In this document: positions 17,684-59,497 of the stretch, piece after piece
How the letters are laid out: the number at the start of each line of letters is the position of its first letter
Position numbering within the stretch: the first letter of the stretch is position 1
Position numbers and translations under genes: made by a program
From: Methanofastidiosum sp.
GTDB taxonomy: Archaea; Methanobacteriota_B; Thermococci; Methanofastidiosales; Methanofastidiosaceae
Reading direction: 5' to 3'
DNA length: 64,000 nucleotides
Assembly (NCBI GenBank): GCA_039679445.1
Contig: JBDKUY010000026.1
Location: forward strand, 28,523 to 92,522
Notes under the pieces: model-generated
The model's database searches: none
What the model was told of the DNA's origin: nothing
What the model saw: only the letters and a program-made list of their open reading frames with translations

Positions 17684-17693
17684 TTAATTCCTC

Positions 17694-28894: not shown

Positions 28895-30316
28895 TTGGTT
28901 GTATATATAGTAGGTGCAGGCCCAGGCGATCCAAAGTTAATCACAGTAAAAGCACTTGAAATGATAAAAAAAGCTGATGTTATCCTATATGATAAACTTG
29001 TAAGTAAAGATTTACTTTCATACTCCAAGAAGGAGTGCATAAAAATATATGTTGGAAAAAAATCTGAAGGGTCCAGCCAATCTCAAGAAGATATAAATAA
29101 AGAACTATGTGATTATGGGGAAAAATACGATATTGTTGTTAGGCTTAAAGGTGGAGACCCATATATATTTGGTAGAGGTGCAGAGGAAGCGATGTACCTC
29201 TACGAGCGAGGTATACCCTTTGAAGTTATCCCCGGTATTTCATCAACTGTATCATGTCCCATGTATTCAGGAATCCCCCTTTCTTATAGGGAATCGAATT
29301 CAGCGTTTGCGTTTTTAACTGGTCATGAGGCCGAAGATAAATCATTTAGCATAAACTGGGACAAACTTCCAGACACCCTAGTAATAGTAATGGGTATAAA
29401 AAACAGAGCTGCAATAGCTCAAAATCTAATTAAAGCTGGATTCGATCCAAAAACACCAGTGGCCATAATTAAAAATGGAACAACTTTACTTCAAGAAACA
29501 ACAGTGTGTGACCTAAGTACTTTAGGAGAAACCCCTGCCGAGCCACCTTCTGTCATATTTGTAGGCAAAAATGTGTTATTTAGAGATAAACTTGACTTCT
29601 TTGAAAAGAAATTACTTTTGATAAAAGGAAAAGAGATATTCGTCTCCAGAGAAAATGGGGAAGAATTAGAGATTATGAAAAAAATGGGTGCACACATCTT
29701 TGCCTATTCTCTTATTGATATAATTAATATTGAGTTTAAGATTCCCAGATTATCAGATTATGATGTCATCGTCCTTACAAGTGCAACAGGTGTTGATAGG
29801 CTCGAAGGTACTGAGTTACCAGAGGATAAAGAATACTACACAATAGGGCCAAAAACTGAAGAAAAGTTAATTCAAAAGGGAATATATCCCAGAAGACCTG
29901 AAAAATACAATTCAAAAGAACTAGCAAAATTTATGATATCTGAATTTAAGGAAAGAAAAAAGATTTTGACTTTGAGATCACAAGAAGCTCCAGGATACTT
30001 AGAGGAACAATTAATGGAATTTCACGATGTTACAAGGGTTGACGTCTATAAAGTCAAAATGAGGGATGACATACCAGAAAAAAAGAATTTTGACATAGCA
30101 TTCATTTCAAGCTCTTCAAATGCAACAGCCTTTAAAAAGAAAGGATTAAAAGCAGAAACTATTGTCTCAATTGGACCTGAAACTAGTAACGCCCTCACCA
30201 AAAAGGGGATTAATCCGACAATCGAAGCTGATACCCATACTCTTTCAGGCATGCTCGAGGCCTTATTGGACTATCTAATCAGATGTGATAATTTTGACAA
30301 GAATAAAAGATCCTAA
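28895..30316 (+). CDS. cobA/hemD: Bifunctional uroporphyrinogen-III C-methyltransferase / uroporphyrinogen-III synthase
   Basis: The N-terminal half has SUMT motifs (VYIVGAGPGDPKLITVKA, VVRLKGGDPYIFGRG). The C-terminal half is HemD-like. The start is TTG at 28895. Confidence 0.85.
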   Translation: MVVYIVGAGPGDPKLITVKALEMIKKADVILYDKLVSKDLLSYSKKECIKIYVGKKSEGSSQSQEDINKELCDYGEKYDIVVRLKGGDPYIFGRGAEEAMYLYERGIPFEVIPGISSTVSCPMYSGIPLSYRESNSAFAFLTGHEAEDKSFSINWDKLPDTLVIVMGIKNRAAIAQNLIKAGFDPKTPVAIIKNGTTLLQETTVCDLSTLGETPAEPPSVIFVGKNVLFRDKLDFFEKKLLLIKGKEIFVSRENGEELEIMKKMGAHIFAYSLIDIINIEFKIPRLSDYDVIVLTSATGVDRLEGTELPEDKEYYTIGPKTEEKLIQKGIYPRRPEKYNSKELAKFMISEFKERKKILTLRSQEAPGYLEEQLMEFHDVTRVDVYKVKMRDDIPEKKNFDIAFISSSSNATAFKKKGLKAETIVSIGPETSNALTKKGINPTIEADTHTLSGMLEALLDYLIRCDNFDKNKRS

Positions 30317-30806
30317 AAATATAGGAATAGTTGCAGTATTTTCTGCACTTGCATTTGTTGCTACTAGGTTTCTCCAGATCCCAATACTCCAAACAGGAGG
30401 ATATCTTAACTTTGGCGAGGCCATAATATATATTGCCGCTATCTTCTTTGGACCTGCTGTCGGAGGACTCGTCGGTGCTATTGGACCAGCTCTTGCCGAT
30501 ATTACATCCCCATATGCTGCCTTTGCTCCTTTTACATTTATCATAAAAGGTATTGAAGGATTTATAGTAGGCAAAATAGCGTCTAGTGATAAGAATAAAG
30601 TTACTAAAATCATAGGGGTAGTGGCTGGTGGGGGGATAATGGTTATTAGCTATTTTATCGTTGAGATATTAATATTTTTGATACCGCCCCCAGTTGCACT
30701 TATAGAGGTACCATTTAATGTGCTCCAGTTCATAGTCGGTGGAACAATAGCCATAATTATAACTGATAGGCTCAAAAAAAGTGTAGATAGGATAATGTAC
30801 AGATAG
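30285..30806 (+). CDS. ECF-transporter S-component-like membrane protein
   Basis: 173 aa and 5-6 TM, rich in Gly/Ala/Pro, resembling vitamin-type S components. GTG start at 30285 overlaps the cobA/hemD stop. The substrate is unknown. Confidence 0.45.
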   Translation: MIILTRIKDPKNIGIVAVFSALAFVATRFLQIPILQTGGYLNFGEAIIYIAAIFFGPAVGGLVGAIGPALADITSPYAAFAPFTFIIKGIEGFIVGKIASSDKNKVTKIIGVVAGGGIMVISYFIVEILIFLIPPPVALIEVPFNVLQFIVGGTIAIIITDRLKKSVDRIMYR

Positions 30807-30807
30807 T

Positions 30808-31374
30808 ATGAAAGACAAATCTAAGTATCTTAAAGATTTAAAGAAAGTAATTGAACAAGGTGAAGTAGACTTTAGGATAATTGATACACTAAACATCCTA
30901 AACTCTAAAGAGAACTATTATACCACTTCAAGTTGTGCTGGCAGGATAATACTTATTGAAATTGAAGAGATAGGCGGTAAGAAAGAATCTAACTTTATCT
31001 TTAAGAGTCATGAAAAGGTAGATTATAAAGATATCTGGAGAGCTATAAATCAATACAGTGGAAGCAAAATGCTTTTTTTAATAGTCAACTCACCTATAAT
31101 TCATGTTGTTTGCAGAAATCTAGAATCTGCCAAAAAATTGATTTATATTTCAAAAGAGTCAGGATTTAAATATTCATCAATTTTCTCGTTGGGAGAAAAG
31201 ATAATTGTAGAGATAAGATCAACAGAAAAAATGGATGCTCCAGTTGTAAAAAACGGCAAGATTTATCCTAGCGAAGAATACGTAACATTCCTAGTTGAAA
31301 TAGGAAATCAACTACTCGATAGAATCAGAAAGAAGATAGAAAAGCTTAATGAAAATCTAAGAAATATAGAATAG
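30808..31374 (+). CDS. Taw3/TYW3-like tRNA wyosine-derivative methyltransferase
   Basis: 188 aa with the YTTSSCAGRI motif, corresponding to the SSCSGR signature of TYW3/Taw3. Confidence 0.6.
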   Translation: MKDKSKYLKDLKKVIEQGEVDFRIIDTLNILNSKENYYTTSSCAGRIILIEIEEIGGKKESNFIFKSHEKVDYKDIWRAINQYSGSKMLFLIVNSPIIHVVCRNLESAKKLIYISKESGFKYSSIFSLGEKIIVEIRSTEKMDAPVVKNGKIYPSEEYVTFLVEIGNQLLDRIRKKIEKLNENLRNIE

Positions 31375-31389
31375 AAAATAATAAAATAT

Positions 31390-31701
31390 TTATTTTTTAT
31401 TTGTCTTTTTCTTTAGAGGTATATCAAAGTTCATGTCTTTTAGTGTGTCTGTTTTTACAATGGCTTTTACTTTTTCAAGCCCAGAGGTTAGTGATTCATC
31501 AATCTTCAGCCTGTAGACGATAATACCGAGCTGTTCATAACTTTTAACAATGTCTTCATTGTATACTGGGATATCAATTTTAATAGGTTCATCTGTTGGG
31601 TTACCAACGATTATGTCCCTATATCCTAGTTTTGCGACATTTTCTACAATATAGCCACCCATGTTCTGGACATCTTTTGGGAAAAGAATAAATTTAGCCA
31701 T
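31390..31701 (-). CDS. Small hydrophilic hypothetical protein at the 3' end of the hydrogenase operon (EhbP-like position)
   Basis: About 103 aa from MAKFILFPKD. The start is tightly juxtaposed to the NuoH-like gene stop at 31704. The ORF-track start at 31845 would overlap that gene. Confidence 0.4.
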   Translation of the reverse strand: MAKFILFPKDVQNMGGYIVENVAKLGYRDIIVGNPTDEPIKIDIPVYNEDIVKSYEQLGIIVYRLKIDESLTSGLEKVKAIVKTDTLKDMNFDIPLKKKTNKK

Positions 31702-31703
31702 TT

Positions 31704-32759
31704 TTACATCACCGCCAATAGAGATAATACAATTGTAAGGAATCCAAGTGCTGTGAATCCCATTGAAACTGGGTAGATTTGCTTGAAAGTAAATATAGGT
31801 GAGAATGCAGATACTATCGAGAATAGTATTGGCATTATCAAACAAAGTAAGCAGTGTACTAATAGTAAAGGTAAATTAAGTGTCGGTGGAAGCCCTATGA
31901 ACAAAGTTATGAAAACGCTTGAGAGTACAAATAGTATTGATTCTCTCATTAAGTAGTATCCCCCTCTTGCCCAAGCTGCATACTCTAATGATGGTCCCTC
32001 GATTACATCTGATTTAGCTTTTTCAATGCTGAATGGATATTCGTTTAGTAACATAATGTACCCAATGAAGTAAACAAATCCGGCTAACATTCCAGGGAAT
32101 GTAAATAGGATTGGCTTTAGACTCAATATTTTATTAAGGTACATTAAATCAATCAATCCACCTGGATAGATGAATGAAGCATCAAATCCTTGGAATTGAA
32201 CTATGTCGGAGAAATTAATTGATTTTGCTAGAACTACGGGTACGAACATTGCAAGATATAGTGGAAATGATCCCACAGTAATCATCTTAAATGCCCTTAT
32301 CACGCTCTGTTGCTCAAAGAATCTTCTATATTCCCCTTTCATGACTGCACCTTTAATCTGGTCTGCATACGGCATTGAAACAGATAGAATAGATCTTGAA
32401 AAGCTACCAATAGCCATAAACAAAAACTCTATTACTTTTAGTAAACCAACTACCGCTACAACTGTTCCTAGCGCATTTACGCCCCACCAGTCTGGTGTTG
32501 TAAAGAGGGCAGCAAAAAACATCACAAATATTCCAATTATAGGTAGACTGTGGAATAATCTTGGCATTGGTGAATTTGGTTTAATCTTTTCTTTATAGAA
32601 GAACTTAAGAATTGCCCAGAAACCAGGTGTAAGCATAGGTGGCCCTATCCTCTGCTGTATCCTAGCCTGAACTTTCCTTTCAAGACCGGGTATAACGAAT
32701 CCAGTAATTAATGCTGCCAATGGAATAAGTATCGTTGCAAGTATAAGTTCAATCATCAT
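31704..32759 (-). CDS. Energy-converting hydrogenase integral membrane subunit, NuoH/HyfC/EhbO/MbhM-like
   Basis: 351 aa with about 8 TM helices and NuoH-family character. It overlaps the large-subunit stop by 4 nt. Confidence 0.75.
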   Translation of the reverse strand: MMIELILATILIPLAALITGFVIPGLERKVQARIQQRIGPPMLTPGFWAILKFFYKEKIKPNSPMPRLFHSLPIIGIFVMFFAALFTTPDWWGVNALGTVVAVVGLLKVIEFLFMAIGSFSRSILSVSMPYADQIKGAVMKGEYRRFFEQQSVIRAFKMITVGSFPLYLAMFVPVVLAKSINFSDIVQFQGFDASFIYPGGLIDLMYLNKILSLKPILFTFPGMLAGFVYFIGYIMLLNEYPFSIEKAKSDVIEGPSLEYAAWARGGYYLMRESILFVLSSVFITLFIGLPPTLNLPLLLVHCLLCLIMPILFSIVSAFSPIFTFKQIYPVSMGFTALGFLTIVLSLLAVM

Positions 32760-33946
32760 AGACCCCTCCTAATTAGGCTCTTTACATCCTCTTCTGTGAA
32801 AATCCTCTCCTTCCCATTTTCAACAACTATGGCCCTGTTAGTACAGGCCAAACATGGGTCACAGCTTGCCATTGTAAGCATACCATCTGTTAATTGATCC
32901 CCGATGCATGCAACTTCCATTGATGCTAAAGCTGTAAGAGTTGGAGTTCTGTTTTGGTAGCTTCTTATCCTTCCAGTTTCATCAAGAGAAAGAGAATCAT
33001 AAATTTCCCCCCTTGGGGCTTCTATATATGAAGTTGAAAATTTCATTTCCTTCAATTCGAAACTTCTGTTTGATACTGGTCCAGAAGGTAAGGATTCAAG
33101 TGCCTGTTTAATAATCTTAACAGATTCAATTGATTCAAGAGCCCTAGCGACAACTCTGTCTTTGTTATCTCCATCATCTAAGACTATAACATTGAAATCA
33201 AATTTCTTATATTCCTTCATTTTCTTTCTAAGATCGACGCCCCATCCACTTGCTCTACCAGTTGGTCCTGGTGCTGCAAATTTCTGGGCTTCTTCTTTAG
33301 TTAATACTCCGCTTCCTTTTACCCTTGACATAATCATTGAATCATTAATGATCCTATTTGCATAATCGCCTATTTTAACATCTAATTTAGACAACCTAGT
33401 CTTTAATTCAGACATTCTGTAATCATCAATATCACATCTTGGCCTGACCCCACCGAGTATAGGAACTGCATAGTGAACTCTATTACCCGAAATTATGTAT
33501 AGAAGATCCATTATATCTTCCCTCAAGGTAAAAGCCCTCATACACATTGTCTCGTGGCCCAATACTTCAGTTGCATGTGCCAAGTAAATCAAGTGGCTAT
33601 GAAGTCTTTCAAGTTCAGCCATTATGACTCTTATATAATCTGCTCTTTCTGGAACATTAATCCTAAGACCTCTTTCAACAGCCCTTGTACCATTCCAAAG
33701 ATGTATGTGTGAACATATACCGCAAATTCTTTCAGTAATAATAAGGCCTTTATGAACAGGCATCCCTTCCATAATTCTTTCAATACCTTTATGGTAAGGA
33801 TCAAGAGTAAGTTCACAATCAACAATTACTTCGTCCTCTACAAAGAATCTTGCCCTATAAGGTTCAAGCATTCCAGGATGCACAAGACCTATTGGAATTT
33901 CAACTTCTGCCTTTTCTTTTCTAGCTTTTTCCCCCACTCTTATCAC
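32756..33946 (-). CDS. Group 4 [NiFe] hydrogenase large subunit (NuoD-like)
   Basis: N-terminal Ni-binding RICGICSHIH motif and C-terminal DPCLACTNR motif. It is 396 aa with no NuoC fusion. Confidence 0.85.
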   Translation of the reverse strand: MIRVGEKARKEKAEVEIPIGLVHPGMLEPYRARFFVEDEVIVDCELTLDPYHKGIERIMEGMPVHKGLIITERICGICSHIHLWNGTRAVERGLRINVPERADYIRVIMAELERLHSHLIYLAHATEVLGHETMCMRAFTLREDIMDLLYIISGNRVHYAVPILGGVRPRCDIDDYRMSELKTRLSKLDVKIGDYANRIINDSMIMSRVKGSGVLTKEEAQKFAAPGPTGRASGWGVDLRKKMKEYKKFDFNVIVLDDGDNKDRVVARALESIESVKIIKQALESLPSGPVSNRSFELKEMKFSTSYIEAPRGEIYDSLSLDETGRIRSYQNRTPTLTALASMEVACIGDQLTDGMLTMASCDPCLACTNRAIVVENGKERIFTEEDVKSLIRRGL

Positions 33947-34386
33947 CTCTCCAATAATAAAGGTATACCTGCTGCAATACCTGCGATGATATCTTCGGGT
34001 CTAGGAGGGCATCCCGGAATATACGCATCAACGGGTATTACCTCATCTACTCTGCAAACTACTTCGTCACTGTCCCCAAGTTCTCCACCAAAATCTTTGA
34101 ATATACCACATCTAACTCCGCATGAGCCAACTGCAGCAACTATTTTTGGTTCAGGAATTGCCTCATAAATTTTCTTTAAAGGTTCTATTGTTCTTCTTAA
34201 AACAGGCCCTGTAACAGCTAGTACATCTGCTTCCCTTGGATTCCAAGTTAGTATGACTTTGTACTGCTCAAGATCATATCTCGGTGACCATGCAACATTT
34301 GCAACTTCAATATCGCATCCATTACACCCGCCTGTGTAAAACAACATGACATGAATTGCGTTTTTTCTAGAAAGTTTTTTTAACAT
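33943..34386 (-). CDS. [NiFe] hydrogenase small subunit (NuoB-like, proximal 4Fe-4S)
   Basis: 147 aa with GGCNGCDIE, GSCGVRCG and GCPPRP motifs. Confidence 0.85.
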   Translation of the reverse strand: MLKKLSRKNAIHVMLFYTGGCNGCDIEVANVAWSPRYDLEQYKVILTWNPREADVLAVTGPVLRRTIEPLKKIYEAIPEPKIVAAVGSCGVRCGIFKDFGGELGDSDEVVCRVDEVIPVDAYIPGCPPRPEDIIAGIAAGIPLLLER

Positions 34387-34388
34387 TT

Positions 34389-34874
34389 TTACACCTCTTC
34401 AAAATACTTTGAGGAGTCCTTAGCCATTATATCAATGATTTCTTTTATCTGAGCTTCTTTGAGTTTTATTGGTTCTTTTAAGAGCTTAGCAGGGTCGGCT
34501 TTAAATTCTCCAACTTCTCTTGGATGAATTGCCCCAGGCTTTCCGTAGAATGCATAAATTGGACAGTTATCGTGGCACCAAAAACAGTAAAGGCATTTTA
34601 AGGGATCGTATTTTGGAGTCTGTGTCTTTGTGTACCCTTTTACTATTTCAACTGGTTTCTCTAGAGGCACCATTTCTATTGCTTCTACTGGACAGATATT
34701 AGCACATCCCCCACACCCGATGCATGATTCATCGTTAACAGCTTCGGGATATTTCACCTTGCCTTGAAGTATTGAATTTCTGATATCTTTACTTGTTACT
34801 CTATCAGCAGCAAAAAGTATTCTAAGGATATTTACATAAATACCCCTAAGAAATATTAAAAAAATACTTTTCAT
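34389..34874 (-). CDS. 2[4Fe-4S] ferredoxin subunit (NuoI-like)
   Basis: CIGCGGCANICP and CLYCFWCHDNCP motifs. Confidence 0.75.
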   Translation of the reverse strand: MKSIFLIFLRGIYVNILRILFAADRVTSKDIRNSILQGKVKYPEAVNDESCIGCGGCANICPVEAIEMVPLEKPVEIVKGYTKTQTPKYDPLKCLYCFWCHDNCPIYAFYGKPGAIHPREVGEFKADPAKLLKEPIKLKEAQIKEIIDIMAKDSSKYFEEV

Positions 34875-35854
34875 TATTTAGACCTCCCGTTAATAGTTCT
34901 GTCTTCAAAATCTGTCTGTACATTAATTGCATAAGCTGGACAAATATTATCACATGCACCACATCTAATGCATTTTTTCATATCAAAGACAAGTTTTTTG
35001 GACTTGACAGATATTGCGTCAGATGGACAAATTTTAACACACTGCTCACACATTATACATAAATCATCATTGTAGGTAAGTGTTCCACCTTTGATTTCTT
35101 TGTGATATCTTGTCTTTCTTGGAAGACATTGGACGGGACAATATGCACCACAGTTTTCACACATTACGCATTTTTCAAGATTTACTCTAAATCCGTTCAA
35201 ATCGACCTCAATGCACTTAGTTGGACAGACTTCTTTGCAGATACCACATTGGATACATCCTTCGTGTTCTCCTTGCCACTCTCTGTAGTTTAACTTAATT
35301 GCATCTTTTTTACAAGCTGTTGTACAAATTCCACAAAGGATACAGTGACCAGTGAACATCTTCTCTCTTTCACTTGTCATAATTTTTGTTGGACAAGCTT
35401 TAACACAAAGATTACAATTGATACATGTTACTGTATCAAATCTTATTCTTCCTCCTTCCCACTTTAAAGCATCTGTTGGACAGGCATCCACACATAGTCC
35501 ACATTGATTACAATAATAGAGTTTCCTTTTTGAGTTGCCCTTAATTATCTTAGGTCTGTGATTTTCAATGACAATTGCATTATTAATACATTTTCTAACA
35601 CAAGTGTAACAAGAAACACATTTTCCATAATCGATGAAGGAATTTTTTATTGCGCCTACTGGACAAACATCCATACACACATCACAATGAGTGCAAACCC
35701 CAGGAGTTGCTTCATATTTTATTGCGTTTGCAGGGCAGTAGTAAGTACATCGGCCTCCTTTATCGCATCTATTTTCATCTATGGCTATGCTTAAGAGCTT
35801 GGCTTTTCCTTTAGTCTGAACTGGACCTCCGTCCCTATCTTTTTGCTTTGGCAT
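34874..35854 (-). CDS. Polyferredoxin, about 10 [4Fe-4S] clusters
   Basis: 326 aa with about 10 CxxCxxCxxxC(P) motifs, as in methanogen Eha/Ehb or Mvh polyferredoxins. Confidence 0.8.
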   Translation of the reverse strand: MPKQKDRDGGPVQTKGKAKLLSIAIDENRCDKGGRCTYYCPANAIKYEATPGVCTHCDVCMDVCPVGAIKNSFIDYGKCVSCYTCVRKCINNAIVIENHRPKIIKGNSKRKLYYCNQCGLCVDACPTDALKWEGGRIRFDTVTCINCNLCVKACPTKIMTSEREKMFTGHCILCGICTTACKKDAIKLNYREWQGEHEGCIQCGICKEVCPTKCIEVDLNGFRVNLEKCVMCENCGAYCPVQCLPRKTRYHKEIKGGTLTYNDDLCIMCEQCVKICPSDAISVKSKKLVFDMKKCIRCGACDNICPAYAINVQTDFEDRTINGRSK

Positions 35855-36243
35855 TATCTCTTCACCTCTTCGATTGTCATTGACTCAAGATTAAACCTAA
35901 GCTTTCCTTCGGCATTGACTCTGGCGCCCATTGGACAAACGTCTCTGCAAACATTGCACATTGCACATATGCCCTCTGGAACTTTCTTATTCTTGTACTT
36001 GACCATCTTTATAACGCTGACAGGGCAGTTCTTTTCACATATGGAGCATCCAATGCATTTTTCTTTGTCTACGATATACCCTCCATATCTATTTTTGAAT
36101 ATAGCATCGACAGGACATACTTCCATGCATTTGCCACATGTGACACAACTGAAAGCTTTGTCATTAATTATTCTAGTACTCTTCGTAGGGCATGCTTCTA
36201 CGCACTTCTTAGCTAGATTACATTTATCAGTGGCAATGTACAT
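35854..36243 (-). CDS. Ferredoxin with 3-4 [4Fe-4S] motifs
   Basis: 129 aa with four CxxCxxCxxxCP-type motifs. Confidence 0.7.
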   Translation of the reverse strand: MYIATDKCNLAKKCVEACPTKSTRIINDKAFSCVTCGKCMEVCPVDAIFKNRYGGYIVDKEKCIGCSICEKNCPVSVIKMVKYKNKKVPEGICAMCNVCRDVCPMGARVNAEGKLRFNLESMTIEEVKR

Positions 36244-36244
36244 C

Positions 36245-36523
36245 TTATTGCCTCCTTATGACCATTGCAATGAAGACTCCGAGCACAGTTGAAAAGAATG
36301 CTTCTGAGAATCTGATTATATGTCCAAATAATGTCCATTGATAATCTGGATATGTGCCCAATGCTGCTGCAATCAGTATAGATACTATCAAAATTACAGG
36401 ATACTTCGCCTTGCTTATCTCTTCAGAGTTGACTTTGTATCCAATTATAATTCCATAAATAAGACCAAATAATATTGGCCCCCATTGATTTGCAAGTCCA
36501 AGTGCTGCAACTTCGCTACTCAT
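36245..36523 (-). CDS. Small hydrogenase-operon membrane protein (92 aa)
   Basis: Two to three TM helices, within an operon with Mrp-like subunits. Confidence 0.4.
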   Translation of the reverse strand: MSSEVAALGLANQWGPILFGLIYGIIIGYKVNSEEISKAKYPVILIVSILIAAALGTYPDYQWTLFGHIIRFSEAFFSTVLGVFIAMVIRRQ

Positions 36524-37313
36524 CTTTCTTCGCCCCCATTAAGAACATGGCTATTAGCGAAAGACCTGCCAACACGTTTAATCCTACACCTATGTTCAAG
36601 TACGGAAGTACTCCTGGGTGTGTTGGATCGGGGTAATCAAGAAAATTATCCCATCCAAATGCTCCAACATGTATTATATCATATGGATCAACACCTGTAT
36701 TGTATAGGTAGTAACCTGTTCCGTAATAATATGTAGTAAAGACAAGCCCAACCACTCCTGTTAGTAAGAATATCAATGCCCCGATAGTTGATAGATTTAC
36801 AAGATATTTATGGGTAAATCTTAGAGGTGTTTTCTTAAGGCCATAAATAACAACAGTTAGGAAGTATCCAGTAGCTATTACTGCTCCACCTGGGAAACCT
36901 CCACCAGGCGAAATATGTCCACCGAGGACAATTGTAACACCAAAGGCTACAAGGAATATTGCTAATGGGAAGGCCATCAATCTTTGAATAACTGTAGATT
37001 TATCTGTCATTTCAGGAGTTTCTTTTTTCGTGTATCCTTTTAATGAACCCCACCCAAATACAACTGTTGTTGTTATTACGGCAGTAATCAGGATGAAAGT
37101 TTCTCCTAATGTATCGTATCCTCTAAAGTCAAACAGTATAACTGTAATAACATTAGGTGCAATATTACCACTGTACAAATTGTATAGGTAACTCATTCCA
37201 GGTACCAAATAATCGCTAAACTGGTAAAGTGTTCTCAGGATAACAAATGAAGCTATCACTAAAGATACCCCTGCGATTATATTTCTACCCTGCTGATAGT
37301 TACTTGTTTTCAC
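36516..37313 (-). CDS. MrpB/MnhB-like antiporter-module subunit
   Basis: 265 aa with the ILFDFRGYDTLGE motif characteristic of the MnhB domain. Confidence 0.7.
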   Translation of the reverse strand: MKTSNYQQGRNIIAGVSLVIASFVILRTLYQFSDYLVPGMSYLYNLYSGNIAPNVITVILFDFRGYDTLGETFILITAVITTTVVFGWGSLKGYTKKETPEMTDKSTVIQRLMAFPLAIFLVAFGVTIVLGGHISPGGGFPGGAVIATGYFLTVVIYGLKKTPLRFTHKYLVNLSTIGALIFLLTGVVGLVFTTYYYGTGYYLYNTGVDPYDIIHVGAFGWDNFLDYPDPTHPGVLPYLNIGVGLNVLAGLSLIAMFLMGAKKDE

Positions 37314-37625
37314 TTAAATCCCTCCTAAGAATATGACAAATAGAAGTGCAAGTGTTAGAGCCACATAGAACGACGATAAGTTTATGGAATCAGTATTTTC
37401 TTTCTCTACTTTGAACACGGTAGGCACTGTAAATAGAATTCCTCCAAGGATAATAAGTGCGCCAAATCCCAATATTGTTGAATTGGCCGTTCGTAATACT
37501 AGTATTGCTCCTATTAGAAGGAATGATAGCATTAGAAATTCTGATGTAAGGGCACTTCCTATACCCATTCCTTGTCCTTTATCTTTCATCTTTTCATGGA
37601 ATATTTCGTATACTTTCTCTAACAA
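37314..37625 (-). CDS. Small membrane subunit of the hydrogenase antiporter module (103 aa)
   Basis: Two to three TM helices in operon context. Confidence 0.4.
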   Translation of the reverse strand: MLEKVYEIFHEKMKDKGQGMGIGSALTSEFLMLSFLLIGAILVLRTANSTILGFGALIILGGILFTVPTVFKVEKENTDSINLSSFYVALTLALLFVIFLGGI

Positions 37626-37628
37626 TTA

Positions 37629-39098
37629 TCACACCCCCAAGGAAACAACAAAATTGTATATCGGATCGTAGATGATATTTGGGAACAATCCTATTGCAAG
37701 ACATGTTAGTATCAATATCACTATAATTGTCTTGAACATAGTTCCACGCACTTCGGTATTGACTTCTACTTTTGGCCCTGGTTTCATGAATATCATGAAG
37801 AATGCTTTTATAACCGCAACAAATGTTGCTACGCTCAATAATATTACAAGTACTCCAAGTTCAGGAACTCCTGCTTGAGTTGCGGCTTGGATTAATCTCC
37901 ATTCACTTTGATAGGAATTAAATGGTGGGACTCCCGATATAGCCAGAGTTGCCAATAACATTACAAATCCTACTAAAGGAACAACCTGTAATCCATCTCC
38001 AAGTTCATCAAGTTTTGTTGTTTTGAATTTATCGTAAACAAAGCTTGCAATGAAGAATAGTATTGCCATGCTTAATACATCATTAATTGCATGGAAAATA
38101 CCTGCTGCAATACCAAAGGAAGTACCTATTCCAAAACCTACCGCTACAAGTCCCGCTTGGGATACAGCTACAAACGACAAAAGCTTTCTAAGTTCTACCT
38201 GTTGTAAAGCCATTACAGAACCTAAGACAACGGTAAATATTGCTAATCACAACATTACAGATTTTAGAAGATCAAAGCCAGTGAAAACTCTGAATAGGAT
38301 TATAGCCATTGCAACAAGAACAAACTTAGACTGAACTTGTAATAATGCAGATATTTCCGGTTTTGCATTTTCGTACATATTACATTTAATTATATGAAAT
38401 GGAAAAAGACCTGATTCATAGAGCCAACCCAATGTTAGCAATGCCACAGCAGATAACGCAATTGGATTTAACTGCCCACCGGCTTTTATGGCGTTGGATA
38501 GATCTGTTATATTCAAAAGTCCGTATACCCCCAAGAGAAGAGCAATTCCTAATAGAATTGAAGCTCCGGAGATTGTTCCAAAAATCATATATTTAAATCC
38601 TGCTTTGAATGATTTAGTATCTTGGACTGCTATTACAAGTGCGACTTGCGCAACTACTAAGATTTCTGTGAAAACGAAGAAGTTGAATATATCATCTGCC
38701 AACATTATTGCACTAGTTGAAGCCAGACTGATGAAAATCATGGCGATATATACCCCCGAAATCATCTTTTTATTGAGTACAGTCAGAACAGTAAAACCAG
38801 TAATTATGGTAAGAACTACCATTAGTATTTTCTGCACAGGCCCATAAGAGTATACTATTCCCATGTATACATCAGGTATTAACAACTTAGATATTTCGGG
38901 AAAACTGCCTGTTCGAAGATGGCCGCTGAACAAATGCACCCCATACAGAGTTACAAGTGGTACAAAGACAAAGATAATCAACGATACTATAGAGATAAAC
39001 TTTACAGATTTATCTTTTTGATGCAGAAAGTTTACTAATATCGCCATTATAAGCGGGAGTACAACCATCAATGGGATCAAAGTACTATTGTTTAACAT
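37629..39098 (-). CDS. NuoL/NuoN/MrpD-like proton/cation-translocating subunit (EhbF/MbhH-like) with a single in-frame TGA at 38247-38249
   Basis: ORFs 38247-39098 and 37629-38213 are in the same frame (start-to-stop offset of 36 nt) and are separated only by one TGA plus 11 sense codons. The N-terminal part has NuoL-family blocks FVFTEILVVAQVALVIA, KAGFKYMIFGTISGA and GLFPFH. The C-terminal part has LRKLLSFVAVSQAG and GVPPFNSYQSEW. The combined 490 codons match family length. Confidence 0.75.
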
Positions 39099-39503
39099 TT
39101 ATTCTTCCCCCTCAAACATTTTTTGAACGCTAAGAGTATGATATTTGTTATATAACACAACTGCAAGTGCCAGCATTACTGAGAGTGTAGATGCTCCAAT
39201 AACAATGTTTGTAAGAACTAATGCAAATGGCAACGAGTATGAAGCGTTGCTTGCAAATTCACCAAATTCTAGTAAATGAGAATAATTTGATGGTGTCGCA
39301 GAAGCGTGAAAGTGATGCATTACCTCAGGAATAAATCCTCCAGGCCTATAACCAATGGTAATCAAAACAAGATTTACTCCATCACCAATCAAGTTAGCAC
39401 CAATTATTTTTTTCAGGATGTTGTCCATCATTAATAGTGCCCATAGCCCTGTTACAATCAGTATGCCTGCTGTAAGGAAAGAAGCTACCTGAAATGGTTC
39501 CAT
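39099..39503 (-). CDS. MrpC/NuoK-like small membrane subunit
   Basis: 134 aa and 3 TM with NuoK-like character (ANLIGDGVNLVLIT). Confidence 0.5.
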   Translation of the reverse strand: MEPFQVASFLTAGILIVTGLWALLMMDNILKKIIGANLIGDGVNLVLITIGYRPGGFIPEVMHHFHASATPSNYSHLLEFGEFASNASYSLPFALVLTNIVIGASTLSVMLALAVVLYNKYHTLSVQKMFEGEE

Positions 39504-39746
39504 TTATTCATCCCTCCCCTGTGTCGTTTTGTAGAGTGCTACTATGAAAAGACCGGGAAGTAGTGCTGCACCTAAAATTGCTTGTACCGCAGCAACGTCT
39601 GTAGCAAGTAAGAAATGGAATATTGCTGCCAACGAAAAACTTTCAAAAGTTAAAATAATAATACTCTTGTAAAGATTTTCCTGTATTATCGCCATTAAAG
39701 CGGACAAAGCTACTGCAAATAACAATATATAATCAAACATTATCAT
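39504..39746 (-). CDS. Small membrane subunit (80 aa, MbhD/MrpB-N-like)
   Basis: Two TM helices in operon context. Confidence 0.4.
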   Translation of the reverse strand: MIMFDYILLFAVALSALMAIIQENLYKSIIILTFESFSLAAIFHFLLATDVAAVQAILGAALLPGLFIVALYKTTQGRDE

Positions 39747-40020
39747 CAGCCTCCGTTAAATCTGCCCAAGATATAGAATGGACTGCTAAAGGCATTAGGA
39801 AAAAATGAGCTAAAGCAGCTAAAATTGCAACTGGATTTCCAAGGAAAATAATAACAAGTATGCATACGACATCCATTACACCTAAAATATGAAGTCTTGC
39901 ATATACTATGTTCTTCCTCTGTCCAAATCTGAAAAGACCTAAAGCAACACCTATAAGACCCATTCCCGCTATTAAATAGAAATAAGGAAGTAGTAGTTCC
40001 ATATATGAATATACGTTCAT
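39733..40020 (-). CDS. MrpG/MnhG-like subunit
   Basis: 95 aa with a YARLHILG motif, corresponding to the MnhG RLHAAGK region. Confidence 0.55.
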   Translation of the reverse strand: MNVYSYMELLLPYFYLIAGMGLIGVALGLFRFGQRKNIVYARLHILGVMDVVCILVIIFLGNPVAILAALAHFFLMPLAVHSISWADLTEADDNV

Positions 40021-40349
40021 TCTGCAATCCCCCCTCTAAAGAATCTAGAAATTATCAATGTTCCTACTGGACCGAGTAGAAGTAAATAAATTGCTATATC
40101 AGAAAAATAAGGAATCCCATACATTTTTCCTACAATCATGAAACCCGTCGCAACACCAATTTCGGCAGCACTCGCACCAGCTAGGGAATTACATACCCCC
40201 CTAAAAGTAGTTACTCTGAGACCAGAAATAATAGCAACGCTGAGTCCTATCAGCATCACGTAAACATAATAGTCTTTAAGTTGGAGATAATGACCGACTA
40301 CCAAGATTACAGCTAAAATCAGCACCAATAAAATATTATTTTTGTTCAT
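40017..40349 (-). CDS. MrpF/MnhF-like subunit
   Basis: 110 aa and 3 TM, in the position after MrpE. Confidence 0.45.
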   Translation of the reverse strand: MNKNNILLVLILAVILVVGHYLQLKDYYVYVMLIGLSVAIISGLRVTTFRGVCNSLAGASAAEIGVATGFMIVGKMYGIPYFSDIAIYLLLLGPVGTLIISRFFRGGIAE

Positions 40350-40667
40350 TTAATCCTCCACCATCTTTTTTATCCATCCCTCAAAAGGAATAACATCTTT
40401 TTGAGTTCTTGGAGAAATAACAGCTACAAGTAATTTCTGCTTTTCTGGAAAGACATCAATAGTCAATGTCCCAGGTGTCAAAGTAATACTGTTTGCAAGA
40501 ATTGTCATAGAAACAGGTCTCTTGAGAACTGTATCGATTTCCATAACTACCGGATCTATTTTCCCATCAACACATTGAATAAAAACGTCTCTTGCAGAAA
40601 CAACGATGTAATATACTAAACCTATAAAATAGACAATACCCCAAAATGGTCTTAGAGCTTTACTCAT
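40350..40667 (-). CDS. MrpE/MnhE-like subunit; first gene of the hydrogenase operon
   Basis: 105 aa with an ITLTPGTLTIDV motif typical of MnhE. Confidence 0.6.
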   Translation of the reverse strand: MSKALRPFWGIVYFIGLVYYIVVSARDVFIQCVDGKIDPVVMEIDTVLKRPVSMTILANSITLTPGTLTIDVFPEKQKLLVAVISPRTQKDVIPFEGWIKKMVED

Positions 40668-40699
40668 TTTTTACACCTTCGGAATTTGAGTAAAAGGTT

Positions 40700-40730
40700 T
40701 ATTTATAGTTTATAAATGTTTCGTCAATCG
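40700..40730 (-). promoter_or_regulatory. Candidate archaeal TATA-box region for the hydrogenase operon
   Basis: TTTATAAACTATAAATAAAC on the coding strand lies about 30-60 nt upstream of the MrpE-like ATG at 40667. Confidence 0.3.
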
Positions 40731-40785
40731 TTAATCAGCGATTTTAATTCTAAAAAATTTCTTGATAATTAAACATATGACTAAT

Positions 40786-40805
40786 AAAAACCTTTAAATA
40801 TAGCC
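40786..40805 (+). promoter_or_regulatory. Candidate TATA box for leuS
   Basis: TTTAAATATA lies about 30 nt upstream of the leuS ATG. Confidence 0.3.
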
Positions 40806-40830
40806 TAAAAACGTGTTTTAAATAAGGTAG

Positions 40831-43662
40831 ATGGTTCTCTTGGAAATCGAAGAAAAATGGCAGAAGAAATGGGAAGAAGCCAGAATTTTTTATTCTGATC
40901 CCAAAAACATGAAAAAATTTTTTGTAAACTTTCCTTACCCATATGTTAATGGATTCATGCACTTGGGCCATTCGTTTTCCCTTATGAGGGCCGAAGTTTT
41001 TGCAAGATATAAGAGAATGTGTGGATACAACACCCTCTTTCCTTTTGGATTTCATGCAACTGGAACACCAATAGTTGCAGCTGCTGAGAGGGTCAGAGAC
41101 GGAGAGAAATTACAGATTGAGATATTAGAAAAGATGGGAGTTCCAAAAGAGCTAATTCCAAAATTTTCCGAACCAGAATTTTGGGTCAGGTATTTTCCAG
41201 AGGAATCAATTAAAGATCTAAAACTCCTAGGTTTATGTATTGATTGGAGAAGAAGTTTCATAACAACTTCGCTAAATCCCTATTATGATAAATTCATCAG
41301 ATGGCAGTTCAACAAATTAAAGGAAAAAAACTTTGTTGTTAAAGGTGAACACCCGGTAACTTGGTGCCCAAAATGTAACAATCCCATAGGGGATCATGCA
41401 AGACTTGAGGGCGAGGGTATTACCCCTGAAGAAATAATCTTACTTAAATTCAAATTTAATGGAAAGATACTGCCTGCAGCCACATATAGAGTGGAAACTG
41501 TTTTTGGTGTAACCAATATGTGGATGAATCCAGACTTCAAATATATAGAGGTTGAAGTTGACGATGAGACCTGGATAATATCACCGATTGCAGCTGAGAA
41601 ATTAATTAATCAAAAACACAACATCAAGATTATTAGAGAATTAGAAACAAAAGAATTGATTGGAAAATCTTGTGAAAACCCTCTGACAGGAGACAAGATC
41701 CCAATTCTTCCTGCAACTTTTGTGTCACCTGAGATAGGCACTGGAGTTGTCATGTCTGTTCCATCACACGCCCCGTATGATTATATGGCATTGAAGGACA
41801 TACAATCAAATCCATCAAAATATGGCGTTTCAGAATCTATTGTCAAAAACATAACTCCAATCTCACTGATAACTGTAGAGAATTTTGGCAAGAATCCTGC
41901 AATAGAAATATCTGAAAAGATGGGGATCACTTCTCAAGAAGATGTCGATAAACTTGAAGAAGCAACTAATATTATTTACAAGAAAGAGTTCCACCAGGGC
42001 ATATTAAACGAGAGAACTGGGAAATATAAAGGAATTAAAGTTTCTGATGTCAAAAAAATTATTGTTACTGATTTTATTAATGATGGCATTGCAGCATTGT
42101 TTTATGAGCTCCCTGGGAAGGTCGTGTGCAGATGCCTTACGCAAGGTGTTGTGAAGATAGTATCTGACCAGTGGTTTTTAGCATATGGAAATCCAGAATG
42201 GAAAGATCTAGCAAAGAAATGTCTAGCACAGATGAATATTTATCCCGAGAAGGCCAGAAAACAGTTTGAGTATGTTCTTGACTGGTTAAAGGATTGGGCG
42301 TGCACAAGGGAGTTTGGACTAGGGACAAAACTTCCATGGGATGAAAAATGGGTAATTGAGTCACTTTCTGATTCTACCATCTATATGGCTTACTATGTTT
42401 TAGCAAAATACTTTGAAGATCCATCCTACAAAATTGACCCAAAAAAACTTGATGATTATTTCTTTGATTATATTTATTTGAAACGTGGCAACCTAGATGA
42501 AGTTTCAGCTAAAAGCGGACTGTCAAAAGAATTAGTTTCAGATATGAAGAAAGAGTTTGAATACTGGTATCCTTTTGAATTTAGGAATAGTGGAAAGGAC
42601 TTAATTCAGAATCATCTTTCTTTTTGTATATTCAATCACGCTGCCATATTCCCTGAAGAGCTGTGGCCCAAAGGATTTGGAGTAAATGGTTGGGTGCTCG
42701 TAGACGGAGAAAAGATGAGTAAATCCAAAGGTAACTTCTATACAATCAAACAGATTGTGAAAATGTATGGCGCTGATGCAGCAAGGATTACCCTAATGAA
42801 TGGTGGAGAAGGCCTTGACGATCCCAACTGGGACAGTGAATTTGCAAGAACTATTACAGACAAATTGAAGAATTGGCAGGATTTCTGCGTTGAAAATTAT
42901 GGAAAAGGCAGAACTGAAAAGTTGTACATAGACAGGTGGTTCTTATCTGTTTTAGATAAAGCGATAAAAGAAACAACTGAAGCCATGAATGATTCCAATT
43001 TTAGGACAGCTCTTTCAAAAGGATTCTTTGACCTCCAAAGAGACCTCAAGTGGTACCTAAAGAGATGTCTTAACTCCCCAAACAAAGAGGTTATTTCTGA
43101 AGTCATAAAAACTCAAACACTGATATTGACACCCTTTACACCCCATATCTGTGAAGAGATTTGGGAAAAACTAGGATTTGAGCCATTTATATCAAATTAC
43201 CCCTGGCCCGAATACAAGAAAGAAATGATTGACAAAATTTCAGAAGAGAGTGAGTACTACATTGAAGAAGTTGTAAATGACATAAGGGAGATAACAAATG
43301 TCCTATCAAGAGGAGAACAGAAGATCCTAGATAGGATTGACATATTCACTGCAGAAAACTGGAAGTGGGATCTTATAGAAGTCATAAAAACAAAAGACAA
43401 TATGGGCGAAGCAATTAAAACCGCGATGGTAAATGAAGATTTCAGAAAAAACGGAAAAGACGTAAATCTCATAATCCAAAGGTGCTTTAAGAACAGATAC
43501 TTCCCAGAAAGGTTTGATGAAAAAGAAGTACTTAACGAAGCAATGGCATTTCTAAAGGAAGAGTTCAAAACAGAAATTAACATAGACCCTCAAGAAGACC
43601 CAGGAAACGATAGGAAAAAGGCACTGCCTAGAAAGCCTGGAATACATATCTATTTTAAATAA
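40831..43662 (+). CDS. leuS: Leucyl-tRNA synthetase (archaeal/eukaryal type)
   Basis: 943 aa with HMGH-like (PYVNGFMHLGH) and KMSKS motifs and a CP1 editing domain. Confidence 0.93.
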   Translation: MVLLEIEEKWQKKWEEARIFYSDPKNMKKFFVNFPYPYVNGFMHLGHSFSLMRAEVFARYKRMCGYNTLFPFGFHATGTPIVAAAERVRDGEKLQIEILEKMGVPKELIPKFSEPEFWVRYFPEESIKDLKLLGLCIDWRRSFITTSLNPYYDKFIRWQFNKLKEKNFVVKGEHPVTWCPKCNNPIGDHARLEGEGITPEEIILLKFKFNGKILPAATYRVETVFGVTNMWMNPDFKYIEVEVDDETWIISPIAAEKLINQKHNIKIIRELETKELIGKSCENPLTGDKIPILPATFVSPEIGTGVVMSVPSHAPYDYMALKDIQSNPSKYGVSESIVKNITPISLITVENFGKNPAIEISEKMGITSQEDVDKLEEATNIIYKKEFHQGILNERTGKYKGIKVSDVKKIIVTDFINDGIAALFYELPGKVVCRCLTQGVVKIVSDQWFLAYGNPEWKDLAKKCLAQMNIYPEKARKQFEYVLDWLKDWACTREFGLGTKLPWDEKWVIESLSDSTIYMAYYVLAKYFEDPSYKIDPKKLDDYFFDYIYLKRGNLDEVSAKSGLSKELVSDMKKEFEYWYPFEFRNSGKDLIQNHLSFCIFNHAAIFPEELWPKGFGVNGWVLVDGEKMSKSKGNFYTIKQIVKMYGADAARITLMNGGEGLDDPNWDSEFARTITDKLKNWQDFCVENYGKGRTEKLYIDRWFLSVLDKAIKETTEAMNDSNFRTALSKGFFDLQRDLKWYLKRCLNSPNKEVISEVIKTQTLILTPFTPHICEEIWEKLGFEPFISNYPWPEYKKEMIDKISEESEYYIEEVVNDIREITNVLSRGEQKILDRIDIFTAENWKWDLIEVIKTKDNMGEAIKTAMVNEDFRKNGKDVNLIIQRCFKNRYFPERFDEKEVLNEAMAFLKEEFKTEINIDPQEDPGNDRKKALPRKPGIHIYFK

Positions 43663-47297: not shown

Positions 47298-47572
47298 TTT
47301 TTCTTTTTGAATTAAAGTTTTGATTATTATCGTAATATATAGATATTTAGTAAAATCATTCAGTTTAACTTAATAAACTATGATTGCTATTTTATTATAA
47401 ATCCTTGGAAGTAAATCTCATTTTCAAGGGAGTTACTATTTTTTAGGGCCAGAAATAAGATTTCCATAGGAGTATATTTTCGAGAAAAGACAATCAAAAA
47501 TATCACTATTTCCAAAGATTTATAACTTTAAATCCTTAATAACAGTTAAAATAAAAATATTCTAAGGGATGT

Positions 47573-49435
47573 TTGGGGATGTTTTATTTTAGGTGTGTGG
47601 TGTGTATAATATTTGTTTCGTTAGTTTTTATTTCTGGAATACAACCACTCCAATCGCAAGAGGAAAATGTCATAAGAGTTGGAATCTATGAGGATAAACC
47701 ACTTATTTTTATAGATGAACAGGACAACGTGAAAGGAGTTTATGCAGATATATTGAATTACATTGTAGAAAAAGAAGGCTGGACTATACAATATCGTTAT
47801 GGAAGTTTGGATGATTGCTTAACTTGGATAAAAAATAAAGAAATAGATGTGCTTGTGGCAGTCACATCATCTCCAGAAAGAGGAGAAATTGCTGAGTTTT
47901 CAAAGGAAAGTGTTTTTTCCAACTGGGGAGAAGTTTATTGTAGAAATAATCTAGAAGTAGATTCCTTTCTAGATTTCGAAGGTTTGAGAGTTGCAGTTGT
48001 TAAGAAGGATATTTACTATATTGGGCCTAACGGAATAAAAAATTTGATGGAGCGATTTGGGATAAACTGTTTTTTTGTAGAGGTCGATAATTATTCGGAA
48101 GTTATTGAAGCCTTAGAAAGTGACAAAGCGGATGTAGGAATTGTTACTAGGCTATACGAAACAGAGATAGTAAGTACTCCAAAAATTAAATCGACTTCAA
48201 TTGTTTTTAATCCAATAAAACTTCTATTTGCATTTCCAAAAGGCAATCCGAATAATGCCTATCTAATAGAAACTATTGATTCGGAACTAAAAAAGTTAAA
48301 GAGCGATCCAAACTCGATATATTATTCAAGCATAAACAACTATTTGGGCGGGGAAATAGGTAAAGTGGTAGTTGAAGTTTTTCCATATTGGGCAAAAGAT
48401 GTTTTTCTCATTGTACTTGGAAGTGTTATTCTATTGTCAATAGGCGGTTTGATTTTAAAATGGCAGGTAAAGGGAAAATCCCAGGAAATATGTAAAAGTG
48501 AAGATAAGTTCAGAAGTTACGTGGAAAACGCTCCTGAAGGCATATTCATAGTAGATGAAAAAGGAAAGTATGTTGATGTTAACGACGCTGCTTGCGAAAC
48601 GACTGGATACACTAGAGAAGAACTTCTTAAAATGAATTTAATTGATCTAATACCTCTTGATGATAGAGAAAATGCAGCAAAGTCATTTGCAAGTGTCATA
48701 GAGAAGGGCAAAAATTCTGCTGAAACTTCCTTTATTAAAAAAGGGGGCGAAAAAAGATACTGGATAGTCAACGCCGTAAAATTATCAGACGGCAGATTTT
48801 TAGGATTTACTAAAGATATTACCGAGAGAAAAAATGCCGAACTTGATTTAATACAAAATGAAAAGAAATACCGCACACTGTTTGAAGACTCAATAAATCC
48901 GATATGGACGACAAGTTATGATGGCACTATCCTTGATACAAATCAAGCAGCGGCGGAGCTTCTTGGATATTCCAAAGAAGAATTGATTGGGTCAAGTGTA
49001 TATGGGCTTTATGTCGACCCTGACATGAGGAAACAATTAATAGCGGAGATAAAAGAGAAAGGATTTGCCAAGGATTTCTTGGCCCACTGGAAGACAAAGG
49101 ATGGACGGCAGGTAGACCTTTTATTTAACTTCACCTTATGGAAAGACAACGAAGGTAATGTTGTGGGATATAGGGGAATAGCACATGACATGACTCTCCA
49201 TTATAGATCTGAAAAGCAACTAGATGAAAACTTAGAATACTTTGCCCACCTAATAGATCACATAAGAAATCCTTTGGCAATTCTCAGCGCTTTCGTACAG
49301 ATAAAAGTCGACGATGAAAAAACAAAGGAAGTAGTCATAAGGCAGGTGAATAGAATTGAAGAGCTATTGAAGCAGTTGGACCAAGGATGGATGGATACAG
49401 AGGATACTAGAAAGTTTCTTAAGAGACATATGTAA
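47573..49435 (+). CDS. Sensor protein: periplasmic solute-binding (SBP3-like) domain, TM, two PAS domains and a HisKA-like phosphoacceptor, with no HATPase_c domain
   Basis: 620 aa with a signal/TM N-terminus and SBP-like sequence. There are two PAS regions. The C-terminal H-box is LIDHIRNPLAIL, followed by only about 50 aa before the stop. Downstream is an AT-rich intergenic region. Confidence 0.75.
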   Translation: MGMFYFRCVVCIIFVSLVFISGIQPLQSQEENVIRVGIYEDKPLIFIDEQDNVKGVYADILNYIVEKEGWTIQYRYGSLDDCLTWIKNKEIDVLVAVTSSPERGEIAEFSKESVFSNWGEVYCRNNLEVDSFLDFEGLRVAVVKKDIYYIGPNGIKNLMERFGINCFFVEVDNYSEVIEALESDKADVGIVTRLYETEIVSTPKIKSTSIVFNPIKLLFAFPKGNPNNAYLIETIDSELKKLKSDPNSIYYSSINNYLGGEIGKVVVEVFPYWAKDVFLIVLGSVILLSIGGLILKWQVKGKSQEICKSEDKFRSYVENAPEGIFIVDEKGKYVDVNDAACETTGYTREELLKMNLIDLIPLDDRENAAKSFASVIEKGKNSAETSFIKKGGEKRYWIVNAVKLSDGRFLGFTKDITERKNAELDLIQNEKKYRTLFEDSINPIWTTSYDGTILDTNQAAAELLGYSKEELIGSSVYGLYVDPDMRKQLIAEIKEKGFAKDFLAHWKTKDGRQVDLLFNFTLWKDNEGNVVGYRGIAHDMTLHYRSEKQLDENLEYFAHLIDHIRNPLAILSAFVQIKVDDEKTKEVVIRQVNRIEELLKQLDQGWMDTEDTRKFLKRHM

Positions 49436-49605
49436 ATAAATTAAAATATCTTTCAACTTTCGTAGTATTGATCGATTTATATGGAATCTCGCCCTTTATT
49501 TTTTGATCATTGTTCTAAGGGCATTTGCATCAAATCTTTTTTTATATATTCAAGGATATTATAAAAAAGAGAGAGAAAGTCCTTATCTAACATTAACATG
49601 AGCCT

Positions 49606-49647
49606 TGTAATATAAGATAAGTTTTCTAGTTTGAGCTTATATTACAA
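49606..49647. promoter_or_regulatory. 12-bp perfect inverted repeat (TTGTAATATAAG, 18 nt, CTTATATTACAA), candidate operator
   Basis: Arms at 49606-49617 and 49636-49647, about 80 nt upstream of the permease gene pair. Confidence 0.4.
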
Positions 49648-49726
49648 CGGCTTATAAACTTAGTAAAATTATTAATCAGGATTTTCATACAATTACCTTT
49701 AAGAAAGGTAATATTATCCTAAGCGT

Positions 49727-50209
49727 ATGTTTCCAAATATTATACTACTATGGATTGCTGGAGCAATTATAGTTTTAATATCCTATTATTTTGATAAGGA
49801 AAAAACAAGGCAAGGAGTTAAAAAAGGGGTAAAAATCTTCAAGGGCCTGCTCTCACCATTTGTTAACATTATGATACTGGCAAGCTTCATTTTGGTAGTA
49901 GTTCCGCCTGAGATGATAGAGCGTTATCTTGGCGGCGAATCAGGATTCTTTGGGATAACTCTCTCTGCAATTATAGGTTCGATTACATTGATCCCTGCGT
50001 TTATAGTATACCCCCTAGCTTCAGAACTATTAGAGAGGGGGGCTTCTTACATGGTGATTGCAACCTTTATTACAACGCTTCTCATGGTAGGCGTTGTCAC
50101 ATATCCTCTAGAGAGCAAATATTTTGGAAAAAAAGTTGCTCTTGTTAGAAATGTACTCAATTTCTTTGCAGCCATTCTTATTGGATTACTAATAGGGGTG
50201 ATAATGTGA
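49727..50209 (+). CDS. Permease half-transporter A (predicted-permease/DUF318-like)
   Basis: 160 aa and 4 TM with a YLGGESGFFGITLSAIIGS motif. Its stop overlaps the next start (ATGTGA context). Confidence 0.55.
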   Translation: MFPNIILLWIAGAIIVLISYYFDKEKTRQGVKKGVKIFKGLLSPFVNIMILASFILVVVPPEMIERYLGGESGFFGITLSAIIGSITLIPAFIVYPLASELLERGASYMVIATFITTLLMVGVVTYPLESKYFGKKVALVRNVLNFFAAILIGLLIGVIM

Positions 50210-50739: not shown

Positions 50740-50745
50740 AAACGT

Positions 50746-51837: not shown

Positions 51838-51838
51838 C

Positions 51839-53388: not shown

Positions 53389-53496
53389 TTGTTTCGCCGG
53401 GATTTAATGTAATTGCAATAATCTTATAAGTCTATCCTTGAAAAAATTTTGCAAAATAAAAACTAAAATAAAATAATAAAAATAAAAAATATATAA

Positions 53497-54357: not shown

Positions 54358-54392
54358 TACTAATAATTTAAAGTTTAAATAATTATTGTTTC

Positions 54393-59383: not shown

Positions 59384-59497
59384 AATAAAAGCTTAAAAGA
59401 AAATATATATATTAATTTCTATTGATAACTGGCCATTTTAAGCCAAAAAATAAATAAAGTATACCTATTAAGGACATATTATTAAGATAAGCTTATA

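Follow-up and report, generated by a model that had tools for sequence, protein, structure and literature searches.

A premature TGA in ehbF of a Candidatus Methanofastidiosum genome is probably a local assembly or sequencing error

In the window, the 64,000-nt stretch of Candidatus Methanofastidiosum DNA analysed here, the ehbF gene of energy-converting hydrogenase B (Ehb) is broken by an in-frame TGA at codon 284. This TGA belongs to a patch of four base differences within 39 nt, which is private to one assembly and has the appearance of sequence unfiltered by selection. Comparison with independent assemblies suggests that the ehbF TGA is probably a local assembly or sequencing error in a single metagenome-assembled genome (MAG), and we infer that the patch arose in silico or during sequencing, not in the cell. 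The TGA would thus be one of four erroneous bases in 38244-38282 and would not be a biological signal.

The ehbF gene, which encodes an antiporter subunit similar to MrpD, NuoN and MbhH, occupies 37629-39098 on the minus strand and consists of 489 codons and a stop codon. Translation of the minus strand gives 490 codons with a single internal stop (38247-38249) and no frameshift, and the terminal TGA is immediately followed by TAA. The N-terminal ORF (38250-39098, or 38247-39098 including the TGA) encodes 283 aa and contains the GLFPFH and QSK blocks, and the C-terminal ORF (37629-38213) encodes 194 aa and begins at an internal ATG (38211-38213). Eleven sense codons separate the internal TGA from this ATG. 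A sequence-only reading of the same DNA had described two ORFs in one frame, parted by a single TGA plus 11 sense codons and free of frameshifts, and both the translation and the ORF list agree with that description.

The two ORFs are halves of one EhbF gene, as they match consecutive stretches of single family profiles. In the NCBIfam profile NF004920 (energy conserving hydrogenase EhbF; 478 positions), the N-terminal fragment matches positions 2-265 (E 7.5e-80) and the C-terminal fragment matches positions 283-476 (E 3.6e-58); in Pfam PF00361 (294 positions), the corresponding matches are 1-135 and 164-291. A search with the joined protein shows that full-length EhbF relatives are 488-489 aa long, and retrieves 489-aa Candidatus Methanofastidiosum proteins with 89-90% amino-acid identity, several of which are named EhbF and all of which carry PF00361 and PF10125. 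Among solved structures, MbhH of Pyrococcus furiosus is the closest by sequence (6cfw_H; E 1.5e-43, residues 6-480), and other MrpD/NuoN chains come next. The earlier assignment to the EhbF/MbhH type is borne out by these matches, as is the view that the combined 490 codons have the length of a full-length subunit of this type.

All 35 columns that are invariant among 25 sequences, including E145, K169, H235 and Q314, are kept in the window ehbF. An uninterrupted frame of about 490 codons is present in all 14 full-length relatives examined and absent from the window copy, owing to the TGA at codon 284. Nothing but the interrupted frame sets the gene apart from other members of the EhbF/MbhH/MrpD/NuoN family, and its ehb operon is likewise ordinary. 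With helices and five-helix repeats placed as in the antiporter-like fold, the N-terminal ORF would span TM1-8, and the C-terminal ORF would lack the first half of TM9. A fragile count of protein accessions (37 genes against 36 numbers between two accessions in MEN6378822-MEN6378886) would fit ehbF having no protein record, as in a pseudogene annotation.

The ehb operon extends over 31390-40667 on the minus strand and comprises 17 genes, from an MNHE-like gene to Ehbp, as identified by gene calls and Pfam matches on the identical DNA of other assemblies. It encodes MNHE-, MrpF-, EhaC-, MbhD- and NuoK-like proteins, EhbF, MJ1308-like and MbhE/MnhB-like proteins, a 92-aa protein, three ferredoxin-type proteins, the NiFe small and large subunits, a NuoH-like protein and Ehbp; the Pfam families found are PF00374/PF00346, PF01058, PF00146, PF00420 and those of Fer4 proteins. 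ehbF lies between the NuoK-like (PF00420) and MJ1308-like genes, upstream of the polyferredoxins and the NiFe subunits. With its large and small subunits, NuoH-like protein, polyferredoxins and Mrp-like small subunits, this is the context of an energy-converting [NiFe] hydrogenase operon. Outside the ehbF patch, the operon is base-for-base the same as in an assembly in which every gene is called intact, in agreement with the earlier statement that the remaining operon is undamaged. Ehb has been proposed to build an ion gradient for ATP synthesis in Candidatus Methanofastidiosa (PMC6019823).

Other ehb genes are called as broken or shortened in other assemblies of related strains. In one (ENA ERZ27257465; contig L101, 5772-6752), the 326-aa polyferredoxin is called as 129 aa plus 161 aa, and in another (contig L090, 4426-4698) the 129-aa ferredoxin is called as 90 aa. 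The window is thus not the only case of assembly-specific lesions in the ehb operon.

The residue expected at codon 284 is glycine. In an alignment of 25 homologues, all close relatives have Gly in this column (LLKSVML-G-FAIFTVV) and distant ones have Ala, Val, Tyr, Leu or Phe; Cys and Trp never occur there. At the DNA level, all relatives, from 83% to 99.7% nucleotide identity, have GGA TTT where the window has TGA TTA. Inferring the residue from homologues had been suggested as a check in the sequence-only reading, and the answer is Gly encoded by GGA.

The comparison contigs were independent assemblies with identical neighbouring proteins, including the Logan assembly of run SRR15035648. 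Three contigs of this run cover about 53.5 kb of the window with seven mismatches and no gaps: SRR15035648_21243 (window 22844-47387; 24,544 nt) has four mismatches, SRR15035648_12196 (5836-18785; 12,950 nt) has one and SRR15035648_19176 (47361-63388; 16,028 nt) has two. Four of the seven fall inside 39 nt of ehbF, and by our own estimate the chance of such a cluster, if seven differences were placed randomly, is about 5e-8. SRR15035648_21243 is otherwise identical to the window, and contigs L090, L093 and L094 of other samples show the same four differences.

On the plus strand, the window has T at 38244, A at 38249, T at 38272 and T at 38282, where the other assemblies have A, C, G and A, respectively. 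These differences change codon 285 from TTT (Phe) to TTA (Leu), codon 284 from GGA (Gly) to TGA (stop), codon 276 from GCT (Ala) to GAT (Asp) and codon 273 from TCT (Ser) to ACT (Thr). Contigs from JGI 3300010353, JGI 3300002220 and ENA ERZ27315067 differ from the window ehbF at these four sites alone, and a 98.4% strain (ERZ922796), a 96.7% strain and relatives at 92.5% and 83% all have the non-window base at each of the four. The variant bases are thus found in no relative from 83% to 99.7% identity. In the other assemblies compared, gene calling yields an undamaged ehbF of 489 aa; the gene-position collection holds no record of the 283-aa truncated product, and its one record of a 194-aa product is a gene cut by a contig end (L001).

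The four changes are also unlike natural variation in ehbF, as all are transversions and all are non-synonymous. Differences from the 92.5% relatives comprise 95 synonymous and 11 non-synonymous changes, or 69 transitions and 37 transversions, and those from the 98.4% strain comprise 17 synonymous and two non-synonymous changes; overall, natural variation is about 90% synonymous and about 65% transitions. This suggests that the patch has not been filtered by selection, and is either an artefact or extremely recent. On this sequence comparison, the patch appears to be one unselected event. Of the seven mismatches with SRR15035648, the three outside the patch are two synonymous transitions, one of which is common to a JGI contig, and one Gln/His change at a site that varies naturally among relatives (Q/H/L/Y).

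Sites that vary naturally among close strains lie near the patch (38217, 38274, 38280 and 38304), and contigs of other assemblies break close to it, at 38215 (start of L001) and 38300 (end of L095). In the Logan assembly of the sister run SRR15035647, the ehbF region is present in short contigs, such as L001 (window 36609-38215) and L097 (window 38902-39976), which are mosaics of window-like and ERZ922796-like alleles. These mosaics point to several co-occurring strains, or to recombination among them.

Several lines of evidence favour an error in the assembly or the reads. The TGA stands among four private transversions in 39 nt, and the surrounding sequence is identical to that of independent assemblies. 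Real mutation seldom produces four substitutions at once, whereas a faulty read end or a mistaken path in an assembly graph typically does, and the nearby strain-variable sites and contig breaks suggest a spot where assemblers err. In addition, purifying selection on ehbF is strong, and a fixed null allele would be costly because of the role proposed for Ehb in generating the ion gradient for ATP synthesis (PMC6019823). The source of the patch might be, for instance, the low-quality end of a read, or an assembly graph followed wrongly at a point where co-occurring strains differ. The real ehbF would then be an intact 489-aa gene with Ser273, Ala276, Gly284 (GGA) and Phe285, matching the other assemblies of the clone. 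Some observations count against an artefact: the assembly is clean over 53.5 kb, the remaining three differences lie at naturally varying sites, and four consensus substitution errors are unusual in well-covered short-read data. Multi-nucleotide mutation clusters are also real events, produced for example by error-prone translesion synthesis, and are rich in transversions.

Other origins of the patch were considered and rejected. A template switch at a quasi-palindrome, or gene conversion, would require a donor, but even the best inverted and direct partners within 4 kb agree at only about 20 of 49 positions, the chance level for the AT-rich DNA of this region, and there is no second copy of the patch 50-mer within the window. 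Import by recombination from a divergent strain is contradicted by the absence of all four bases from relatives at any distance, and a generally error-prone assembly by the lack of indels in 53.5 kb and the ordinary character of the other three differences. The patch is a single isolated anomaly in an otherwise clean assembly.

The main alternative is that the cluster is a real and very recent mutation, in which a single episode of error-prone repair or replication in one Methanofastidiosum population produced the four transversions and left ehbF as a fresh pseudogene in an otherwise intact operon. This is possible but rather doubtful. The deposited sequence does carry the TGA, in an assembly that is otherwise accurate, without indels over 53.5 kb and with natural-looking differences elsewhere; a pattern that is entirely non-synonymous and entirely transversional suits new, unselected mutations as well as it suits errors; and the genome contains at least one reproducibly disrupted gene, at 6594-7456 (see below). 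Against this, no further assembly of this clone or species has the lesion, four simultaneous changes are seldom seen among real mutations, and no donor sequence or inverted repeat accounts for them. Purifying selection on ehbF is strong, and a null allele in the majority of a population is unexpected in the proposed energy-conserving ion pump of the lineage (PMC6019823). Were the stop real, translation would give a 283-aa product that breaks off just past the TM8 block and lacks the second five-helix repeat, and function would most likely be lost. One population would then carry a newly arisen null allele of what is proposed to be its sole ion-pumping hydrogenase, which would be a modest curiosity of population genetics and would imply no new mechanism.

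The disrupted gene at 6594-7456 (minus strand) encodes a UbiA-family prenyltransferase and is present as two overlapping ORFs in different frames: a 94-aa ORF (7172-7456) matching positions 8-50 of PF01040 and a 206-aa ORF (6594-7214) matching positions 55-228. The same DNA is found in three independent assemblies, and the frameshift is thus real in the lineage; it represents a pseudogene or, conceivably, a programmed shift. The region 5577-6760 (minus strand) contains an ORF that matches only positions 61-224 of HisKA_7TM, followed by a 128-aa ORF in another frame with weak HisKA/SpoOB matches. These look like remnants of a histidine kinase gene, a full-length paralogue of which (563 aa; HisKA_7TM plus HATPase_c) is located at 11416-13107. 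Together with the UbiA frameshift, these putative remnants suggest a small patch of gene decay.

This recurrence further favours an error in ehbF, as the UbiA frameshift of the same window is seen in three independent assemblies and the ehbF stop is not. A pseudogene of the lineage would be seen again in independent assemblies or samples, and the ehbF lesion is not.

Functional explanations, by a split gene or by recoding, taken together are very unlikely. That the TGA is real and Ehb works all the same, either as two polypeptides broken at the five-helix repeat boundary or through UGA read-through, is given hardly any weight; if true, it would be a natural demonstration that an ion-translocating subunit of the MrpD/NuoN type tolerates splitting or recoding. 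In the split form, for which we see scarcely a chance, residues 1-283 and residues 296-489 would come together again in the membrane, the second polypeptide arising through re-initiation at an ATG 33 nt past the stop. The stop does fall near the repeat boundary, as the alignment with MbhH, with helices placed as in the antiporter-like fold, puts it between the TM8 block (QSKF...), which it closely follows, and the TM10 block (LRKLLSF...), and the downstream in-frame ATG has a weak AGGT 6 nt upstream of it. This AGGT, however, is part of the conserved Leu-Gly codons of all intact genes, and re-initiation at Met296 would drop 12 residues, comprising the first half of TM9. Moreover, the gene is undivided at codon 284 in all relatives, and the break is private to one assembly and accompanied by three other amino-acid changes.

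The least probable explanation of all is recoding, in which selenocysteine (Sec) insertion, reassignment of UGA to Gly or Trp, or efficient programmed read-through would yield full-length EhbF. The reading frame is intact on either side of the TGA, and the Gly of the relatives coincides with the meaning of UGA in genetic code 25. The aligned residue, however, is Gly encoded by GGA in relatives and never Cys or Sec, and strains that are 99.7% identical lack the TGA. In an archaeal selenoprotein gene, the UGA would be conserved among orthologues of Sec-using relatives and would align with Cys or Sec of homologues; here, the column holds Gly in close relatives and Ala, Val, Tyr, Leu or Phe in distant ones, and the TGA is absent even from contigs that are 99.7-100% identical elsewhere. 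Of the 67 long ORFs in the window, 19 also end in TGA, among them hemL (26724-27986), several overlapping ehb genes and ehbF itself, confirming the previous statement that TGA is a genuine stop here, although the gap between the hemL stop and hemC (starting at 27994) is 7 nt and not the 8 nt given before. A reassigned stop (code 25 for Gly, code 4 for Trp) would be unused as a terminator and in frame in many genes, and no other TGA-split gene was seen in the window.

Searches of the window for tRNA-Sec and SECIS-like RNA gave no support either. ARAGORN and an Rfam scan at gathering thresholds detect tRNA-Gly and tRNA-Glu only, and no tRNA-Sec, in the 64-kb window; the RNA fold around the TGA is no better than that of shuffled sequence (z = -1.04); and an Rfam scan of 30300-41000 with E values up to 5, in a database that may hold no archaeal SECIS model, returned one chance intron-like match. 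A survey of Sec use that included Candidatus Methanofastidiosa genomes places archaeal Sec only in class I methanogens, Asgard archaea and AK8/W8A-19, and Methanofastidiosa are not among the users (PMC5424206). The behaviour of TGA as an ordinary stop, the tRNA, Rfam and folding results, this survey, the Gly at the position and the lack of the TGA in near-identical strains together effectively exclude Sec, reassigned UGA and programmed read-through. Among the three explanations offered in the sequence-only reading, nonsense mutation and assembly error thus survive, with the error favoured by the private 39-nt cluster of transversions, and recoding by Sec or read-through does not.

YcaO (407 aa) and TfuA (219 aa) genes adjoin each other upstream of hemL-hemC on the plus strand (window about 24.8-26.7 kb; 2022-3852 of SRR15035648_21243). 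In methanogens, YcaO and TfuA as a pair are linked with the thioamide modification of methyl-coenzyme M reductase. At 49727-50739 (plus strand), two neighbouring ORFs of 160 aa and 177 aa, whose stop and start overlap by 4 nt, both match the ArsP_1 permease family (PF03773); the same two-ORF layout is found in several independent assemblies, and the pair is probably a naturally two-part permease.

The main consequence is for annotation quality: ehbF is best treated as an intact gene whose product has S273, A276, G284 and F285. Its stop should not serve as evidence for selenocysteine, stop recoding or lost energy conservation in Candidatus Methanofastidiosum. Comparison with near-identical contigs of independent assemblies offers a useful test for 'internal stop' calls in MAGs, in which clustered, private and unselected substitutions indicate an artefact.

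Among known systems, EhbF of Candidatus Methanofastidiosum, Methanococcus and Methanobacteriales (NF004920; PF00361, PF10125) has the same length (489 aa) and the same operon position as the window gene; these other copies are all uninterrupted, whereas the window copy has the internal TGA and three private amino-acid changes within 13 codons. P. furiosus MbhH (PDB 6CFW chain H), MrpD and NuoN have the invariant E145, K169 and H235 in common with the window EhbF, but identity to them is only about 27-30%, and the accessory subunits of Ehb differ. The UGA-Sec genes of Methanococcales and Methanopyrus (such as VhuD, VhuU, FruA and HdrA) likewise belong to the hydrogen metabolism of methanogens and have an in-frame TGA at which gene callers would split them; unlike in these genes, the aligned residue in the window ehbF is Gly, the TGA is not conserved even in near-identical strains, and the lineage is not known for Sec use. 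The lesion also resembles 'internal stop' pseudogene calls in MAGs that result from local consensus errors, which are similarly confined to a single assembly, clustered, unselected and located at a strain-variable spot in an essential conserved gene. The window differs from such cases in that the error is deduced from comparison of assemblies rather than seen in reads, and in that the rest of its assembly is very clean.
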